A stretch of 64,000 nucleotides of DNA, taken from a phage. The translations under genes were made by a program, and so were the position numbers. The notes under the pieces are model-generated. The model made no database searches. It was not told where the DNA came from and saw nothing but the letters and a program-made list of their open reading frames with translations. The stretch is taken from the NCBI GenBank assembly GCA_038314665.1, contig GCA_038314665.1_3677.1; one strand, 5' to 3'. Below, one piece after another: positions 11,513 to 55,164 of the stretch (its first letter is position 1; each line of letters opens with the position of its first letter).

Positions 11513-12253
11513 TGATGATATTTGTGGGTGTGATATTTGCTGGAAAGTCAGATATGACGGGACTCCCGGCGGGGCAGGGGTAGTACAGACAGGGAAAATA
11601 TGGGGATGTAGTTGGGGAAATTGATCAGACAGGTGGAGTATAGTATATGTTACAAGTATGTTAAATAGAGAGGTTTAATATCTGTAAGATTTGTGTGTAA
11701 AATCAAAGACTTAAGTGGTGTTGTGGTATTTTCTATAAATAATTCAAGTTTAATAGGGAATATTTGTCAGAAAGGCAGGTTCAGGTTATTTAAAGTGGTA
11801 TTTCAGATGCATGTTTACAGAAGCAGGTAACCCCCCTCCCCCTTCGGCTACCATTCACCTTTTCCTCTGACTGGTACTTAAACACTTATTCAGACTCTTC
11901 AGGTTATCACCCATATATCATATGGCAGTGACTGGTGTCCTCCGGCCCCTCTTTCGTCACCCGTCCGCTTCGCCATGCTAATGCCATAGCCAGTGGTTCG
12001 GTTGTTCACCCTGTTCACTCAGGTGTATCTCCATACCCCTTCAAACCGAAGAGAACAGAAAACCCGAATTACTCGGTAAAAGAAAAGAGAAGAACTTAAT
12101 TTTATCAGGATAGGCAAGAATGTCAAGGCATGACTGCTCACTAAACAAGCAAACAGTCATGTGTGGGAGGTAAGTGATTGTGGTGGTAGGAAATTTAGTT
12201 GAAAGATGTGTTATGGGTGCTCCCAGCACTTTAGCCGGGCAATTAATTGTGTG

Positions 12254-12469
12254 TCAGTCCAGTGGTTCATCCCCTACTTCACTGAAATCGATGTTCATGG
12301 TCTCCTCCCAACCATCAATCTCAGCACCAGAGTAGAGATCTTTAGGACTTACTCCCAAAGCCTCAGCAACAGAGTCCATATTTAACACCTCTGGCAGGTA
12401 TGATTCATCGAATTCAAGGTAAATCAGGCCACGAGTGTTGTCAGCTCCACCAAATATTTCTATCTTCAT
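12254..12469 (-). CDS. hypothetical small acidic protein (71 aa)
   Basis: last ORF of the minus-strand array; acidic C-terminus. Confidence 0.5.
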   Translation of the reverse strand: MKIEIFGGADNTRGLIYLEFDESYLPEVLNMDSVAEALGVSPKDLYSGAEIDGWEETMNIDFSEVGDEPLD

Positions 12470-47846: not shown

Positions 47847-48608
47847 TTACAGTTCCATAAAGTTTTCTACAGTTTCAATAAATTCTTTATCAGAGAAAGC
47901 GTCAACAGCACCGTTAAACCATACAGGGATCCCGCGATCCTCATATTGATAAAGGTCGCTACGTGAAATGCCACTTCCATCTGCACTCTGCGAATCATAC
48001 TTGTTTACAATCAGCAGTTTTGTGCCTTTACAAGTAGCAGGAAACAATTCCCAGTTAAAATTAATAACTGTGTTAGAACAACCTACCAGGATCACCATAT
48101 CATTGCTGGTAAGAGATGTCAACAGGTCATACATGTCTGTATACTTAGGAGCAACCTCACCGAAGAACACTACATTGGGCTTAACCCAGGTATACTTGCC
48201 TGTATCTACCTCAGTGTATCCGATATTTTTAATTACATCATTACCTTCAGCATCTTCGTAGGTGATTTCAGGCAAATACCCGTGGACATGTAAAATATCT
48301 TCATGTTTTACACCAGCACGCTCCAGCAAATCATCTACATTGGTAGTAAGGTTGATTACACGACCAGACCAGCGGGAATACCACTCAGCGATCCGAAGAT
48401 GTGCAAGGTTAGGATCAACACTGCCAAGAGCTACACGACGTGCATTGTAAAAGTCATGCACCTTATAGTAGTTCTTGGCAAAGGTGTGGATATTGCACAC
48501 CTCATCGATGCTGAAATTCTCCCACATTGCAGTGCTACCAGATCGGAAAGTGGGAATACCAGATTCAGCGCTCAAACCAGCACCGGAGATAATAATCAGT
48601 CGTCGCAT
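47847..48608 (-). CDS. Sir2-family NAD-dependent deacylase / ADP-ribosyltransferase-like protein (253 aa)
   Basis: Sir2 motif ISGAGLSAESGIPTFRS. Confidence 0.65.
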   Translation of the reverse strand: MRRLIIISGAGLSAESGIPTFRSGSTAMWENFSIDEVCNIHTFAKNYYKVHDFYNARRVALGSVDPNLAHLRIAEWYSRWSGRVINLTTNVDDLLERAGVKHEDILHVHGYLPEITYEDAEGNDVIKNIGYTEVDTGKYTWVKPNVVFFGEVAPKYTDMYDLLTSLTSNDMVILVGCSNTVINFNWELFPATCKGTKLLIVNKYDSQSADGSGISRSDLYQYEDRGIPVWFNGAVDAFSDKEFIETVENFMEL

Positions 48609-48616
48609 AAGTGTCC

Positions 48617-48967
48617 TCAGTAGATGTTTTGTTTAATCTCTATTCCAAACTTCTTGAATGAGTCAGCAGCAAGCATAAATTTACGAGCTGCCGATGGATT
48701 AGAAGTATGCACGAAAATAATCACGTTGTCAATAAGTGGTGGCTTTCCGAATACAAGTTTCTCCTCTAGCGCAGAGAAGCAGTCGTACCCTTCAAACACT
48801 TCACCTAGATCATTGTCAAAATACCACTCAGATACGCGTCTGTAGAGCTTTCTCTTATCATTAAGAAAATCCATAAACTCAGAAGAATTCTTTAGCCACA
48901 GAGCGTCTGGGAGTCCATAATCTGACGGATCTCTAAAATCATCAAGCCACACAATCCACTTCTTCAT
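48617..48967 (-). CDS. hypothetical protein (116 aa)
   Basis: coupled ORF. Confidence 0.45.
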   Translation of the reverse strand: MKKWIVWLDDFRDPSDYGLPDALWLKNSSEFMDFLNDKRKLYRRVSEWYFDNDLGEVFEGYDCFSALEEKLVFGKPPLIDNVIIFVHTSNPSAARKFMLAADSFKKFGIEIKQNIY

Positions 48968-49899
48968 TGCATATAGTCCTCGTTGTGGAAATAGTAGTCC
49001 AGTATCTCACGACGCTCCTGCTCTAATAAGCAATTCCACACATCTTCTGTATAGTTGCTACGAATAAATTTTACCATACCGTAAAACTCTTCGTCAACAC
49101 GTTTAAAGATATCATCATCCCAAATCTTCCAAGCTTTACCCCTCATTACGGCCTTCCGTGCCAGATAGTATGGAGACTTGATCTTCAGCTGCAGATCATA
49201 AGGGTAGTAAGGCTTACGAATCATATACCCTTCACCTCTTGTTTCTGCAGCTAATTCTTTTGCATAGCTGAACGGAATTTCACGCACAGTGTGAGGACGT
49301 TTTGCACCAAGGTATTTGGCAATCCCATCTAAAGCTGCTTCTGGTAGCATTATTCCAGAATCATTATATCTGCAACCTATCAAATATGCGCCATGATCTT
49401 CCTGAACAATATGCGGATCTGAAGGGTGGCAAATTTCAAACATGAATGTCATGTTTTCATTGCCCATAACCTTCTTGATAAGATCTAAATTACCACATTG
49501 CTCCCTGATGGTTTCTTTTGCGAGGTTACAATATGGGGAATCAAGAGACCCGGTTGTTGAGAACAACAGTTCACCTTTATGAGATGATACCACACCGAGG
49601 AATCCGTTCTTTTTCTCTACCGCAGTAACAAGTTTACTGTCCGGTAGGTTGGTGGAGTTTTCTCCTAAGTTGAATACTTTTGTGAAAGGCCATGCCACAA
49701 CATTCCCCTCATTGCCAACAACAATACCTCGGCACTCCAGTAAACGCGGAGACAAATGCCACAGATTGTTGTAGAATACTTTTCTGGCATATTTATAGAT
49801 CTTTAATCCAAGATCTGGATAATACCGACTGGTTACAAGACCTTTGTCTACTAGGTCATCTGCATTAAAATACTTCATCATACGTTCCTCATTTGTCAT
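48964..49899 (-). CDS. RNA ligase, T4 Rnl1-like (311 aa)
   Basis: LLECRGIVV and EKKNGFLGVV resemble T4 RnlA ALECRGIMF and the KEDGSL adenylation motif. Confidence 0.6.
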   Translation of the reverse strand: MTNEERMMKYFNADDLVDKGLVTSRYYPDLGLKIYKYARKVFYNNLWHLSPRLLECRGIVVGNEGNVVAWPFTKVFNLGENSTNLPDSKLVTAVEKKNGFLGVVSSHKGELLFSTTGSLDSPYCNLAKETIREQCGNLDLIKKVMGNENMTFMFEICHPSDPHIVQEDHGAYLIGCRYNDSGIMLPEAALDGIAKYLGAKRPHTVREIPFSYAKELAAETRGEGYMIRKPYYPYDLQLKIKSPYYLARKAVMRGKAWKIWDDDIFKRVDEEFYGMVKFIRSNYTEDVWNCLLEQERREILDYYFHNEDYMQ

Positions 49900-49999
49900 T
49901 TTGTCAGTCTATCTTGCCACACAAATAACCTAGTGTCAACACTTGAAATTAACAAAACAGTTAGGTATACTATCATTAAAATTAAAACGGAGGATTGCT

Positions 50000-50410
50000 A
50001 TGTCTAAAATGCTATATATCGTGCGTGGTCTGCCAGGGTCTGGCAAATCAACACTGGCAAATGCGCTATCTTTAGAAGGCCTGTATCCACATTTTGAGAA
50101 CGACATGTTCTGGTATGACGATGACGGCAATTACAACTGGGATGCAAGTAAAGTAACACTCGCAGCAAAATGGTGCAAAGATAACGTAGAAGATATGATG
50201 CGTATGGGATACGACCGTATCGTGGTAAGTAATACGTTTACAAAAGAAAAACATGTGCAGGAATATGTTGACATGGCAATCAGTCATGGGTATAGTTATA
50301 CCGTGATCGTGGTTGAAAACCGCCACGGTAATAAAAGCATTCATGATGTTCCAGACAAGATTGTGGATCGTATGGAACGCCAGCTTAAAAACTGCATTAA
50401 ACTTAAATGA
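50000..50410 (+). CDS. polynucleotide 5'-kinase domain protein (136 aa)
   Basis: start taken at the ATG with GGAGG RBS; P-loop GLPGSGKST as in the T4 Pnk kinase domain GCPGSGKST. Confidence 0.65.
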   Translation: MSKMLYIVRGLPGSGKSTLANALSLEGLYPHFENDMFWYDDDGNYNWDASKVTLAAKWCKDNVEDMMRMGYDRIVVSNTFTKEKHVQEYVDMAISHGYSYTVIVVENRHGNKSIHDVPDKIVDRMERQLKNCIKLK

Positions 50411-50417
50411 GGAATGT

Positions 50418-50972
50418 ATGAAATACTTTGTAACAAGCGATACGCACTTTCTCCACCAGCGGGTCATGGAGTTTGAGTCATGTCAAAAACACAGATCTCA
50501 GTATGATCACAATCTTGATAGTATGAATGCTGGAATCATCACCGAGTGGAACTCTGTTGTGTCACCTGCAGACACTGTGTTCCACCTGGGAGATATTGCG
50601 TGCACTAATGATAAGAATATCAACAACTTACTTCCAGATATTCTAAATATGTTGAACGGACATATTATTCTTGTTCGTGGCAACCATGACACAAGAACGA
50701 CTGTCAGAATTATGAAAGAGTTCGGTCATGAGGTTGTAGATTATTACGAGCTTCGCCACAACAAGAATTTGATCTGTATGAGCCATTACCAGTTTGCAAA
50801 GTGGAACAGAAAGCCTCACGGATCAGTCCAACTGTTCGGTCATGCTCACGGAACCACACAACAGTTGTTTGGCAGGCAGCTTGATGTCGGTTGGGATGTG
50901 TGGGGGAGACTCTTACCATTAGAAGAGGCATACCGTATTGCAATGAGTTTTGATATTGACAGCAGGGAGTAA
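50418..50972 (+). CDS. calcineurin-like metallophosphoesterase (184 aa)
   Basis: start taken at the ATG after AGGAA; DxH...GD...GNHD metallophosphatase motifs. Confidence 0.6.
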   Translation: MKYFVTSDTHFLHQRVMEFESCQKHRSQYDHNLDSMNAGIITEWNSVVSPADTVFHLGDIACTNDKNINNLLPDILNMLNGHIILVRGNHDTRTTVRIMKEFGHEVVDYYELRHNKNLICMSHYQFAKWNRKPHGSVQLFGHAHGTTQQLFGRQLDVGWDVWGRLLPLEEAYRIAMSFDIDSRE

Positions 50973-52030: not shown

Positions 52031-52609
52031 ATGAGTCCACGCAAAGATGACCGTGAAAAGATTGCAAAACGTTATCAGAATGAAGAGCAGATGGAGAAAA
52101 CTTTCAAGTGGAAGCCAGGTTTCCAGCGTAATCATTCTAACGCTCGTGATCGTAAGCATCCGGATAAGTGGTTAACACCGCCAAATGATGGCATGCAGGT
52201 TGGTGATGAGAAGGAGCTGTCACCTGGAAAAGATGGCAACTACATTCGCACTAAGGAAGCAGGTCCAAAGGATGACAGCTATCTTGTAGATAAGGTTCTT
52301 GATGGTATTGATGTAGATGTTGACACTGCACGAAACCTTTTTCTTGGTTGGTATCGTACAGGGTTTTTCGACATCAAGGCTATTCGTCGTGTTTGCGATA
52401 TTAAAAAGTCTGCCTATGATGATGACTCTCTACATCGCACTCTGAGACAATACTCAGAGAGATACGGTCATCCAGTTATCACTCTTGACGATATTAACGA
52501 AGTGATGTATCATGCAGAGGTTGTTGCAGGTAGATTCGGTGATGCATATTTCAGTATTCTTTCTGCAAAAGATGAGGTAATGTTAAATAAGATTTACCAT
52601 GAACGCTGA
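52031..52609 (+). CDS. hypothetical protein (192 aa)
   Basis: ORF with GAGGAGG RBS. Confidence 0.55.
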   Translation: MSPRKDDREKIAKRYQNEEQMEKTFKWKPGFQRNHSNARDRKHPDKWLTPPNDGMQVGDEKELSPGKDGNYIRTKEAGPKDDSYLVDKVLDGIDVDVDTARNLFLGWYRTGFFDIKAIRRVCDIKKSAYDDDSLHRTLRQYSERYGHPVITLDDINEVMYHAEVVAGRFGDAYFSILSAKDEVMLNKIYHER

Positions 52610-53473: not shown

Positions 53474-53812
53474 ATGGCGGATACAACTAAAAAGCGTCGC
53501 CGTAGAGGCAGACCTCTGAAAGAGGAGTCCAACGCCATTCAGCTAGAGAAGAACATCCTTGATATGAAGGAATCTTTTATAGCGATGGTTCCAGAAGCTC
53601 ACAAAGTTTTAAGAGAGCTGATGTTGGACCCGAAAACCAAACAAAATATTCGTCAAAGCATTGCAGAGTATGTTCTTGATAAGGCAGACCGAATGCAGGA
53701 AGAATATGATGAGATGTTTGGTGAAGAGGAAGAGGTGGTAGTAGAAGAGGCTGAAAAACCAGCACCTTTTATGCCATTTACCACAGAAATACAGCCTGTT
53801 AGCAATAGCTAA
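53474..53812 (+). CDS. hypothetical protein with N-terminal basic patch KKRRRRGRP (112 aa)
   Basis: ATG after GGAGGAAAC; ORF track extends upstream to 53354. Confidence 0.5.
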   Translation: MADTTKKRRRRGRPLKEESNAIQLEKNILDMKESFIAMVPEAHKVLRELMLDPKTKQNIRQSIAEYVLDKADRMQEEYDEMFGEEEEVVVEEAEKPAPFMPFTTEIQPVSNS

Positions 53813-53821
53813 AATATTTTC

Positions 53822-53850
53822 TTGACAAACTTTGCTTAACAGTGTAATAT
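53822..53850 (+). promoter_or_regulatory. sigma70-like promoter (TTGACA-N17-TAATAT) for the tRNA cluster
   Basis: about 60 nt upstream of the first tRNA. Confidence 0.6.
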
Positions 53851-53908
53851 TGTAAACATGGTCTCCCACCTTTTCTGGCGGCTAAGGTGTAAAAGAAAGC
53901 CACCCAGT

Positions 53909-53983
53909 GCCCTGTTAGCTTAGTGGATAAAGCAGCGGCCTTCTAAGCCGTTGACACTGGTTCGAGTCCAGTACGGGGTGCCA
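53909..53983 (+). tRNA. tRNA-Arg (anticodon TCT)
   Basis: manual cloverleaf: acceptor GCCCTGT/ACGGGGT, anticodon loop CTTCTAA, T-loop TTCGAGT, encoded CCA. Confidence 0.75.
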
Positions 53984-54113
53984 AGTTCTTTTTAATGTAG
54001 CTTACTTTAGCAGAGTAAATCTTCGGCAAGTGGCGGTAACCACTTTACCGATACCTCATAGTTAGTGGTGAGAACACTAGCTATTTTAAAAAGAATTTAA
54101 ATATTAGTATTTA

Positions 54114-54201
54114 GGTGAGTTAATTCCGTAGGGGTAGCGGGGCAGACTGTAAATCTGTTATCATTGCGATTCGGGTGGTTCGACTCCATCACTCACCACC
54201 A
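54114..54201 (+). tRNA. tRNA-Tyr (anticodon GTA)
   Basis: acceptor GGTGAGT/ACTCACC, anticodon loop CTGTAAA, long variable arm, CCA. Confidence 0.8.
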
Positions 54202-54315
54202 AATTTATATTTTTAAATGCATAAATCATACAGATAATGGCATTGATATTTATCGTCGTTTATACTAGTCACTAACTGCTCGAAAATCAGTGTCATTATC
54301 AGTATAATTTATAAA

Positions 54316-54406
54316 GGAGGGTAGGGAGCAATGGTGCTCAAGCGGTCTTGAAAACCGTCCCATTGAGGATGACTCGATGATGGTTCGATTCCATTACTCT
54401 CCGCCA
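54316..54406 (+). tRNA. tRNA-Ser (anticodon TGA)
   Basis: acceptor GGAGGGT/ACTCTCC, anticodon loop CTTGAAA, long variable arm, CCA. Confidence 0.75.
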
Positions 54407-54504
54407 CATTGTTGACCTTGTAATTAAGCGAAAGCCGGAAGCAGAACCGGATTATCAAATGTTACAGTCGTCATCGCCGACTAGCAACATGGTCAACATA
54501 CTGA

Positions 54505-54603
54505 GCTAGGTAAGCCCTTTGGCAAGGGCGAGGATTTTTAATCCTGAAAATAGACGAGGTAGTCGTTGAATACATAGGTGGTTCGATTCCACCGCCTAGC
54601 ACC
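54505..54603 (+). tRNA. atypical tRNA-like gene (99 nt), anticodon possibly TTT
   Basis: acceptor GCTAGGT/GCCTAGC and T-arm GGTGG-TTCGATT-CCACC are clear; loop TTTTTAA on a short stem; about 30 nt between anticodon arm and T-arm. Confidence 0.4.
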
Positions 54604-54608
54604 TTTTT

Positions 54609-54684
54609 GCTGATGTAGCACAATTGGCAGTGCAATTGATTTGTAATCAATAGGTTGCAGGTTCAAGTCCTGCCATCAGCACCA
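54609..54684 (+). tRNA. tRNA-Thr (anticodon TGT)
   Basis: acceptor GCTGATG/CATCAGC, anticodon loop TTTGTAA, T-loop TTCAAGT, CCA. Confidence 0.8.
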
Positions 54685-54685
54685 A

Positions 54686-54760
54686 GGCCCTGTAGCTGGA
54701 AGGTTCAAGCAAGCGACTCATAATCGCCAGACGGTGGTTCAATTCCACCCAGGGCCACCA
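54686..54760 (+). tRNA. tRNA-Met (anticodon CAT; elongator Met or Ile2 type)
   Basis: acceptor GGCCCTG/CAGGGCC, anticodon loop CTCATAA, CCA. Confidence 0.7.
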
Positions 54761-54771
54761 AATGGTAAATA

Positions 54772-54848
54772 CTCCGCGTAGCTCAGCTTGGTAGAGCGCC
54801 TGATTTGGGATCAGGAGGTCGAGTGTTCGAATCACTCCGTGGAGACCA
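54772..54848 (+). tRNA. tRNA-Pro (anticodon TGG)
   Basis: acceptor CTCCGCG/CGTGGAG with C1-G72, anticodon loop TTTGGGA, T-loop TTCGAAT, CCA. Confidence 0.8.
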
Positions 54849-54894
54849 CTTTCAGTTATACTTTAAACATATACACACAAAAGGAACCTTTAAA

Positions 54895-55164
54895 ATGTAT
54901 ACACTTAAAATTGTAGAGCGTGTAAATCCAACAAATACTGTAGATTTTCGTGACGATTTCAATCCTCTGGCTGTAAATCTTCGAGAGTCATATCATGAAC
55001 TCAGCTGCGATGCAGTGGTGGTCTTTTTTGAAGACAACTCTGAAGGGGCGGTAGCTTGTGTTGTTGATAGTGAGCAGAAGTTTTATATTTACAGAGATGT
55101 AGATGCATACTTGATGAATGAAAATGCAGTTACTGTTAGAATCATCCACCGAGTGCCTCGATAA
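54895..55164 (+). CDS. hypothetical protein (89 aa)
   Basis: ATG after AAAAGGAACC; followed by a strong terminator. Confidence 0.5.
   Translation: MYTLKIVERVNPTNTVDFRDDFNPLAVNLRESYHELSCDAVVVFFEDNSEGAVACVVDSEQKFYIYRDVDAYLMNENAVTVRIIHRVPR

Follow-up and report, generated by a model that had tools for sequence, protein, structure and literature searches.

What is the 99-nt tRNA-like gene that lies at positions 54505-54603, on the plus strand, of a 64,000-nt stretch of phage DNA (GCA_038314665.1, contig GCA_038314665.1_3677.1; hereafter the window), within a cluster of ordinary tRNA genes? The original prediction, made from the letters alone, saw a cloverleaf with an overlong variable region there and suggested a tRNA with an insertion, a suppressor-like tRNA or a pseudogene. 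Its placement of the gene was correct to the base, and ARAGORN gives identical coordinates. We found that the element is the rV5-type member of a real, conserved and previously undescribed family of phage tRNA look-alike RNAs.

The element begins with the 5' strand of the acceptor stem, GCUAGGU (54505-54511), which pairs with GCCUAGC (54594-54600). A8 and A9 (AA) precede a D-arm GCCC-UUUGGCAA-GGGC (54514-54529) in which G18 and G19 are present and for which an alternative stem of 6 bp with a 4-nt loop is possible. The anticodon-like arm AGGA-UUUUUAA-UCCU (54531-54545) has four Watson-Crick pairs inside the invariant G54530 and G54546. It is followed by a 5' linker GAAAAUA (54546-54552) with a near-invariant GAAAA core, an extra hairpin GACGA-GGUAG-UCGUU (54553-54567) that is a short version of the 20-24 nt found in other genera, and a 3' linker GAAUACAUA (54568-54576) of which the AUACAUA part is invariant. 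The T-arm GGUGG-UUCGAUU-CCACC (54577-54593; canonical T-loop, 100% paired) and the 3' acceptor strand come next, and the gene ends with discriminator A73 and CC (54601-54603), so that CCA is incompletely encoded; every non-rV5-type member of the alignment has U73-CCA. The minimum-free-energy fold, with an energy of -37 kcal/mol (z = -3.8; equalled by 1 of 200 shuffles), consists of these five helices: the four of the cloverleaf (acceptor, D, anticodon-like and T) plus the extra hairpin.

Measured against the Rfam tRNA family (RF00005), whose model gives the element 31.0 bits, narrowly above its gathering score of 29, and places 26 inserted nt in the variable region, the element has the 7-bp acceptor stem, the 5-bp T-stem, a T-loop of the form UUCRANY (UUCGAUU), and G18G19 with the G19-C56 pair. 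It departs from the 17-nt anticodon arm with a 5-bp stem, U33 in a 7-nt loop and a purine at 37, although the loop of the window copy is itself canonical. It also departs from U8-A14, for which it has A8/U14, both invariant in the family alignment, so the D-arm region is not fully canonical; the earlier description of canonical acceptor, D- and T-arms therefore stands for the acceptor stem and T-arm and not for the D-arm region. The upper limit for the variable region of a standard tRNA is about 24 nt, and here 31 nt (54546-54576) separate the anticodon-like arm from the T-stem, as the original prediction had seen in its estimate of about 30 nt, longer than any standard variable arm. Its view that this is no normal tRNA-Lys is likewise borne out.

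Comparison with other phages showed that the element has many relatives. The window is itself an rV5-like phage of Escherichia (Vequintavirus, Vequintavirinae) and over positions 53800-55000 shares 97-99% identity with such phages as BP9, YN3 and rV5. BLAST with the element returned 127 phage records, nearly all of them rV5-like (120+ sequenced rV5-like genomes), and besides these the diverged copies of an Avunavirus (Av-05) and of a Seunavirus (Salmonella phage NINP13076). Searches of IMG/VR, metagenomes and genomes with three patterns (the 3' motif, the D-arm alone and a degenerate pattern) yielded further variants in IMG/VR and in metagenomic phage contigs, and BLAST with an Erwinia-phage variant added 45 records from Henunavirus, Mydovirus, Seunavirus and Cronobacter and Enterobacter phages. 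One carrier is an N4-like podovirus, Salmonella phage UTK0002 (Schitoviridae), in which the element again lies in the tRNA cluster. There is one copy per locus. A covariance model built from 29 distinct sequences (R1) matched the window copy over its full length at 105.5 bits, within the range of the members (103-121 bits). Among non-members a deletion chimera came closest, with 33 bits, no ordinary tRNA (not even those with a long arm, Ser, Leu and Tyr) exceeded 32 bits, and about 80 unrelated control loci gave two matches only, at 19-23 bits; about 120 chance loci retrieved with the gapped pattern GAAAAYAG...TGAATAC were kept purely as negative controls. The window copy shows each feature by which we define the family, namely a tRNA body with A8/U14, a short arm flanked by G...G, the order G(A/U)AAA-hairpin-AUACAUA, and the T-arm.

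The family has been annotated inconsistently or not at all. The rV5 genome paper lists six tRNAs without mentioning the element, which is unannotated in the rV5 and BP9 records, and the same sequence is labelled elsewhere as 'tRNA-Lys, isotype prediction inconsistent' (LL12), 'tRNA-Lys AAA' (BASEL phages), 'tRNA-OTHER', 'tRNA-Stop(tta)' (SophiaRose) or 'tRNA-???(atcc)'. The last corresponds to what ARAGORN returns for the window copy, an unnamed gene ('tRNA-???') with the 4-base anticodon atcc; ARAGORN detected no non-rV5 version of the element. In other genera it appears as 'tRNA-sup(tca)' (Hena1), is buried under a hypothetical protein, or is omitted, and a literature search found no paper that describes it. 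We rejected a host origin: the tRNA body had no BLAST match among 5,426 E. coli genomes, and the sole bacterial-genome hit (Sporosarcina, L160) has no cloverleaf and is absent from the R1 matches. We likewise rejected descent from neighbouring tRNAs, among them Leu(UAA), Gly(UCC) and Ser, as identities were only at background level. Two phages have lost the element. In V18 (L007, ~1450-1545) and JES2013 (L008, ~1440-1530), deletions removed tRNA-Ser and the 5' half of the element, leaving chimeras in which the 5' part of tRNA-Tyr is fused to the 3' part of the element (from the T-arm onward only in JES2013) and the acceptor strands are mismatched. Both phages are viable; the element can thus be dispensed with in culture, which fits an accessory function.

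To describe selection on the fold we used structure-blind MAFFT alignments of 21 and 29 sequences. The four cloverleaf helices were paired at 99.6% in the former and 98.7% in the latter, and both sides had changed in 10 pairs and in 12 of 23 pairs (77 cells), respectively. None of 500 shuffles did as well, and controls with the helices slid out of register were 32-50% paired, and 33-48% in the larger alignment. The few unpaired cells arise because the register of the Seuna- and Mydovirus copies is shifted by one nucleotide. All seven acceptor pairs are 100% paired in the 29 sequences, five of them with changes on both sides, and three of the four variable pairs of the D-stem covary. The tertiary elbow pair G19-C56 is G-C in 25 sequences and U-A in four, and is never unpaired; the U19-A56 copies are those of Mydovirus (D-loop UUUGUCAA, T-loop UUAGAUU). 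The extra hairpin folds in every member, with compensated changes from ACGA/UCGU to ACGG/CCGU (A-U to G-C) in Av-05 and from C-G to U-A in the copy L175, and its loops fall into conserved classes (e.g. GAACUAACAGUAC and CUUUUAGGG) on covarying stems. Within the rV5/Av-05 clade every stem substitution preserves pairing (two compensated doubles and three G-U-preserving singles). The structure of the element is thus under selection, and the suggestion of a pseudogene is not supported: a tRNA pseudogene loses pairing without compensation, whereas here pairing is kept and doubly changed cells abound, and such strong compensatory covariation, extending to a tertiary pair, excludes that reading. The same data settle the register of the anticodon-like arm. 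The changes from AGGA/UCCU through AGGU/ACCU to GGGC/GCCC covary, so the short stem, the loop TTTTTAA and the nominal TTT had been read in the right register; the fold with the four-base anticodon 'atcc' proposed by ARAGORN, the other register in which a standard tRNA might have been found, had 39% of its cells paired, which does not exceed the slid controls.

The distribution of variable columns among the 29 sequences is the reverse of that of a decoder, with a free loop and fixed linkers. Nine of 10 columns vary in the anticodon-loop region, compared with 3 of 8 in the D-loop, 2 of 7 in the T-loop, 1 of 5 in the 5' linker and none of 7 in the 3' linker AUACAUA. AUACAUA is also present in copies found by the D-arm pattern or by BLAST, and its invariance is therefore no ascertainment artefact. 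The proposal of a tRNA with an insertion holds only superficially: the extra segment is of ancient origin, and nothing in the molecule is better conserved than its flanks. The anticodon-like arm measures 15-16 nt throughout, versus 17 nt in tRNAs, as 4 bp with a 7-nt loop or 5 bp with a 6-nt loop, mostly with A33; across the family loops are 6-8 nt long and U33 is mostly absent. They read UUUUUAA in the rV5 type, UUUAUAA in Av-05, CAUCAAA, UAUCAAA or AAUCAAG in Henunavirus, N4-like and metagenomic copies, and CAUCCA, CCUCCA, CCGCCA or CCUCAA, on a 5-bp stem, in Seuna- and Mydovirus. Even two close Mydovirus copies differ at three positions, two of them inside the 6-nt loop. As a control we took the adjoining tRNA-Thr(UGU) from the same 11 genomes, in which 48 of 76 columns vary and UUGUAA is invariant; orthologues thus conserve the anticodon of tRNA-Thr and not that of the element in the same genomes. 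Carriers also possess canonical tRNAs with the same nominal anticodon (Gly(UCC) in PVP-SE1, Lys(UUU) in the carrier L026). In Hena1, whose copy is of the UCA type, TGA ends 15 of 55 annotated genes, several of them in ATGA overlaps, and a crude call of open reading frames gave TGA stops for 14 of 54 in the window and 14 of 51 in Hena1. A drifting loop together with ordinary use of TGA indicates that the family is neither a codon reader of fixed identity nor a suppressor. Since the rV5 type retains the invariant linkers, the simplest inference is that it retains the function of the family.

What might that function be? The reading we favour, to which we give about an even chance, is that the element is a non-decoding tRNA mimic that serves, in a conflict over tRNA cleavage, to decoy anticodon-type nucleases or to compete for them. 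Our data demonstrate its structure, conservation, membership of the family, reversed pattern of constraint and genomic setting; we infer that it is expressed and matured, what it binds and that it acts against host defence. The element would be transcribed and processed together with the phage tRNA cluster and would fold into an L-shaped tRNA body (acceptor, T-arm, D-arm and elbow) in which the invariant linker-hairpin-linker domain takes the place of the variable loop. Its short arm with a freely changing loop would preclude ordinary codon reading, and the element would instead engage a host factor that binds tRNA, an anticodon-type nuclease being the most plausible; the fast-changing loop would be the bait and the invariant domain would supply an unvarying shape or point of contact. 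The bait of rV5-type phages would imitate host tRNA-Lys(UUU). The anticodon arm of that tRNA, GUUGA-CUUUUAA-UCAAU, was verified in 5426 of 5426 E. coli genomes, and the arm of the window copy, (G)AGGA-UUUUUAA-UCCU(G), equals it at 10 of the 11 positions 30-40. Host tRNA-Lys(UUU) is the target of both PrrC and PARIS, and positions 30-40 take in the site at which PrrC cuts (33/34) and, for the PARIS nuclease AriB, the 5' side of its cut site (40/41) (PMC11464382, PMC10264068).

A predicted tRNA-repair module lies 3.5-5.5 kb upstream of the element (47847-50972) and comprises, by Pfam, a Sir2 gene (47847-48608), a cREC gene (48617-48967) and an RNA ligase of the T4 Rnl1 family (48964-49899), all on the minus strand, followed on the plus strand by a P-loop (polynucleotide) kinase (49943-50410) and a calcineurin-type phosphoesterase (50313-50972). 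Iyer, Burroughs and Aravind described this neighbourhood as 'prototyped by Escherichia phage V5 and Proteus phage Mydo' and predicted that it performs NAD-dependent repair of tRNAs cut by host nucleases (PMC9503650). In diverged metagenomic lineages, the repair genes have distant homologues (24-52% identity) at a distance of 6-11 kb from the element. The module and the element may be functionally linked. A bolder proposal, which we put forward tentatively and regard as rather doubtful, is that the element is the founding example of phage-encoded tRNA-mimic anti-defence RNAs, in which interchangeable loops would bait PrrC, PARIS or similar nucleases and the extra domain would prevent cleavage or trap the enzyme, alongside sirtuin-Rnl1 repair; an aberrant 'tRNA-Ile' gene found beside the element in other genera (described below) would be another decoy.

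Several points weigh against a decoy. Loops outside the rV5 type copy no host anticodon arm clearly, so the idea of a bait leans mainly on one lineage, and the rV5-type loop could have drifted to A/U. The rV5 type also looks partly reduced, with its short hairpin, altered discriminator and a CCA that is not encoded. A decoy alone leaves the invariant linkers unexplained, and a stoichiometric decoy would require high abundance. As for the repair module, it was not seen in the flanks examined for the N4-like carrier or L026, and its linkage to the element is inseparable from the shared ancestry of the myoviruses.

It is possible, though we rather doubt it, that the rV5 type, with the window copy, has become or stayed a functional tRNA-Lys(UUU) whose variable arm is oversized, and which is charged by LysRS and replaces host tRNA-Lys cut by anticodon nucleases; its altered anticodon stem and bulky arm would evade these nucleases, as the T5 tRNA-Lys variant does with PARIS. 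LysRS identity elements comprise U33, UUU, A37 and A38 in the loop plus discriminator A73, and the window copy has all of these in a canonical 7-nt loop, A73 being confined to the rV5 type while other members have U73. Annotations based on tRNAscan call the gene tRNA-Lys, no other tRNA-Lys was found in the phage by ARAGORN, the stem is unlike that of the host at the AriB cleavage site, and the repair module is nearby. On the other hand, one depositor reported the tRNAscan isotype as inconsistent, in the sister lineage Av-05 UAU is combined with U73 or C73 and fits no identity set, and the 31-nt variable region exceeds that of any known decoder, in addition to the anticodon stem of four Watson-Crick pairs and A8/U14 for U8/A14. 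The orthologues cannot be decoders of fixed identity, and the invariant family linkers kept by the rV5 type argue for the ancestral function. We think it unlikely that the tRNA body is instead a scaffold for processing and stability whose linker-hairpin-linker payload binds or titrates an RNA-binding protein, a sequence-specific endoribonuclease or some other host or phage factor that has no connection with tRNA nucleases. This would fit with the linkers being the most conserved part, with hairpin loops in conserved classes on covarying stems, and with the move of the element into an unrelated N4-like phage, and engineered tRNA scaffolds reportedly demonstrate the principle (PMC3401473). But the tRNA body, including the elbow pair and the U73-CCA of non-rV5 members, is too tightly constrained for a mere scaffold, the hairpin is drastically shortened in the rV5 type, and we found no antisense target in the window and no match to an Rfam motif. 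An antisense regulator was rejected as such: the sole perfect complement of the 3' linker in the window is in the element itself, and matches to the 5' linker are those expected by chance. Rfam searches for known RNA families at permissive thresholds gave only tRNA or sub-threshold tRNA-Sec.

The signs of reduction in the rV5 type (shorter hairpin, no encoded CCA and a discriminator changed relative to other genera), together with the viability of V18 and JES2013 after deletion of the element, might suggest a decaying relic, a gene that once encoded a tRNA or tRNA-like RNA and has become neutral in rV5-type phages. We consider this very improbable, as all stem substitutions in the rV5/Av-05 clade keep pairing, both linkers are intact and the element persists in 120+ sequenced rV5-like genomes. 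Least credible of all is a stop-codon suppressor, ochre-reading through UUA in a shifted register in rV5 types and opal-reading through UCA in others. The GenBank labels 'tRNA-Stop(tta)' (SophiaRose) and 'tRNA-sup(tca)' (Hena1) point that way, as does UCA at nominal positions 34-36 in many members, and a suppressor-like tRNA had been among the initial suggestions. However, the window copy is nominally UUU and the 'tta' reading requires a non-standard register; the relatives labelled tRNA-sup(tca) carry A33 rather than U33 and vary in loop length, in other members the loop is of 6 or 8 nt or reads UCC, GCC or UUU, and TGA ends as large a share of genes in Hena1 (15 of 55) as in the window, with no avoidance of TGA.

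Among known RNAs, class II tRNAs (Leu, Ser and bacterial Tyr) are the nearest structural analogue of the element. They share the 7/5 acceptor/T arrangement, the elbow formed by G18G19 and the T-loop, an extra helix set between anticodon arm and T-arm, the location in a tRNA cluster and, in most family members, an encoded CCA. They differ in that the region between the anticodon arm and the T-stem spans about 13-24 nt, compared with 31-41 nt in the family (31 in the window, 38-41 elsewhere), and in that their extra helix emerges directly, whereas the hairpin of the family is set off by invariant single strands of 5-8 nt and 7-10 nt. The family also differs from class II tRNAs in its anticodon arm of 15-16 nt, A8/U14 and unconserved loop, and in model R1 the two are more than 70 bits apart. 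The nearest functional analogues are the nuclease-evading phage tRNAs of T5 and the stable RNAs encoded in the T4 tRNA cluster. The T5 tRNAs (tRNA-Lys with PARIS, tRNA-Tyr with retron Eco7) are likewise cluster genes with an anticodon stem-loop altered at sites of nuclease recognition, but they are otherwise canonical, chargeable decoders with a fixed anticodon, unlike a family with an invariant extra domain and a drifting loop. The T4 species 1 and 2 RNAs (rnaC and rnaD) are stable non-tRNA RNAs within a phage tRNA cluster, and rnaC has a tRNA-like T-arm and terminal stem, as the element does; neither has a cloverleaf with a D-arm or an anticodon-like arm. Homology to them was rejected, as model R1 with filters off gave 8.8 bits for rnaC and no match for rnaD, against more than 100 for members.

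The element also resembles the bacterial Y RNA YrlA, which is described as a non-decoding RNA that mimics the tRNA elbow and is encoded near the RNA-repair genes for RtcB and RtcA (PMC4201824, PMC7790460); the element would likewise be a non-decoding elbow mimic close to RNA-repair genes. The ends of YrlA form the Ro-binding helix and its tRNA-like part is internal, whereas the ends of the element form an acceptor stem with CCA, and the Rfam YrlA model (RF02553) had no match on the element. tRNA-Sec and allo-tRNAs resemble the family in their long extra arm, in the D-arm (a 6-bp stem and 4-nt loop, which is possible in the family) and, for many members, in UCA; they have 8/5, 8/4 or 9/3 arrangements and G73, compared with 7/5, U73 or A73, and A33 in the family and UUU in the window copy. 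tRNA-Sec (RF01852) was accordingly rejected: it was the best sub-threshold match for non-rV5 members, at 22-27 bits against a gathering score of 47, and these members are 7/5 without G73. No tmRNA was found by ARAGORN, and the only Rfam hit, of 17 bits, lies elsewhere in the cluster.

Typing, biocontrol and therapy make wide use of phages like rV5, PVP-SE1 and Mydo, whose genomes have been annotated hundreds of times, so that recognition of a single family would correct their tRNA counts and the codon-usage arguments built on them. To our knowledge, the known phage counters to tRNA-targeting immunity are canonical phage tRNAs and repair enzymes only; the element is a testable candidate for an RNA-based counter to such immunity (PrrC, PARIS, retrons and Schlafens). 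That a natural tRNA fold tolerates an invariant domain of 30-40 nt in its variable region is also relevant to tRNA structure and to the engineering of tRNA scaffolds.

The tRNA cluster that contains the element extends over 53909-54848 on the plus strand (ARAGORN and Rfam), where all of its genes lie: tRNA-Arg(UCU) (53909-53983), a long-arm tRNA-Tyr(GUA) (54114-54198; missed by ARAGORN, 39 bits in Rfam and annotated in related records) and tRNA-Ser(UGA) (54316-54406) precede the element, and tRNA-Thr(UGU) (54609-54684), tRNA-Met/Ile2(CAU) (54686-54760) and tRNA-Pro(UGG) (54772-54848) follow it. The 'tRNA-Met(CAU)' is probably a lysidine-dependent tRNA of the Ile2 type rather than Met; the BASEL record annotates it as tRNA-Ile (codon ATA). 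A sigma-70-like promoter, TTGACA-17-TAATAT (53822-53850, plus strand), stands upstream of the cluster, at a place equivalent to that annotated as P(tRNA) in the rV5 record, and the element is likely to be co-transcribed with the cluster. Because it ends 5 nt before tRNA-Thr, processing of tRNA-Thr by RNase P would free its 3' side. Between the genes, a structured insert of ~127 nt (53984-54113, z = -3.4) separates tRNA-Arg from tRNA-Tyr in the window, in BP9 and partly in JES2013, and is absent in rV5, where these tRNAs are 4 nt apart. The Tyr-Ser spacer (54199-54315) holds a long, near-perfect hairpin (z = -4.9) with a TATAAT-like box at its end, just before tRNA-Ser, and the 98-nt spacer that precedes the element (54407-54504) is moderately structured (z = -2.6).

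In several other lineages, including the N4-like phage, a protein of ~202 amino acids without a Pfam domain is encoded 30 nt to 1.3 kb from the element (L180, 5698-6306; L181, 2168-2779; L006, 602-1213; L026, 5553-6209; L016, ~11671-12276). It is common to non-rV5 Vequintavirinae and many N4-like podoviruses (92 records) and looks like a resident of tRNA clusters. We rejected it as an obligate partner, since rV5-type and Av-05 phages do not have it and most N4-like carriers of the protein are without the RNA; the window open reading frame at 52031-52609 is unrelated to it. In Seuna- and Mydoviruses, and not in the window, a second aberrant tRNA-shaped gene lies directly upstream of the element (L006, 2419-2494; L186, 103-178; L189, 223-298; L183, 222-298; L184 and L187, 224-298). 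It has a cloverleaf of normal size with G73-CCA, no U33 and a pyrimidine at 37, its loop reads ACGAUUC, AAGAUUC, ACAGAUCC (8 nt) or ACGAUA (6 nt), and it is annotated as Ile, Ser or '???'. Across the region of the element, 18 GenBank records of 'Campylobacter phage' (MG0656xx) are 97-99% identical to rV5-like E. coli phages, and either these host assignments are probably wrong or the samples contaminated. Finally, in a 152-kb metagenomic phage contig (L167, 7862-7934), ARAGORN called a tRNA with the amber-reading anticodon CUA ('tRNA-Pyl') at the extreme end of the locus, where it is possibly truncated.

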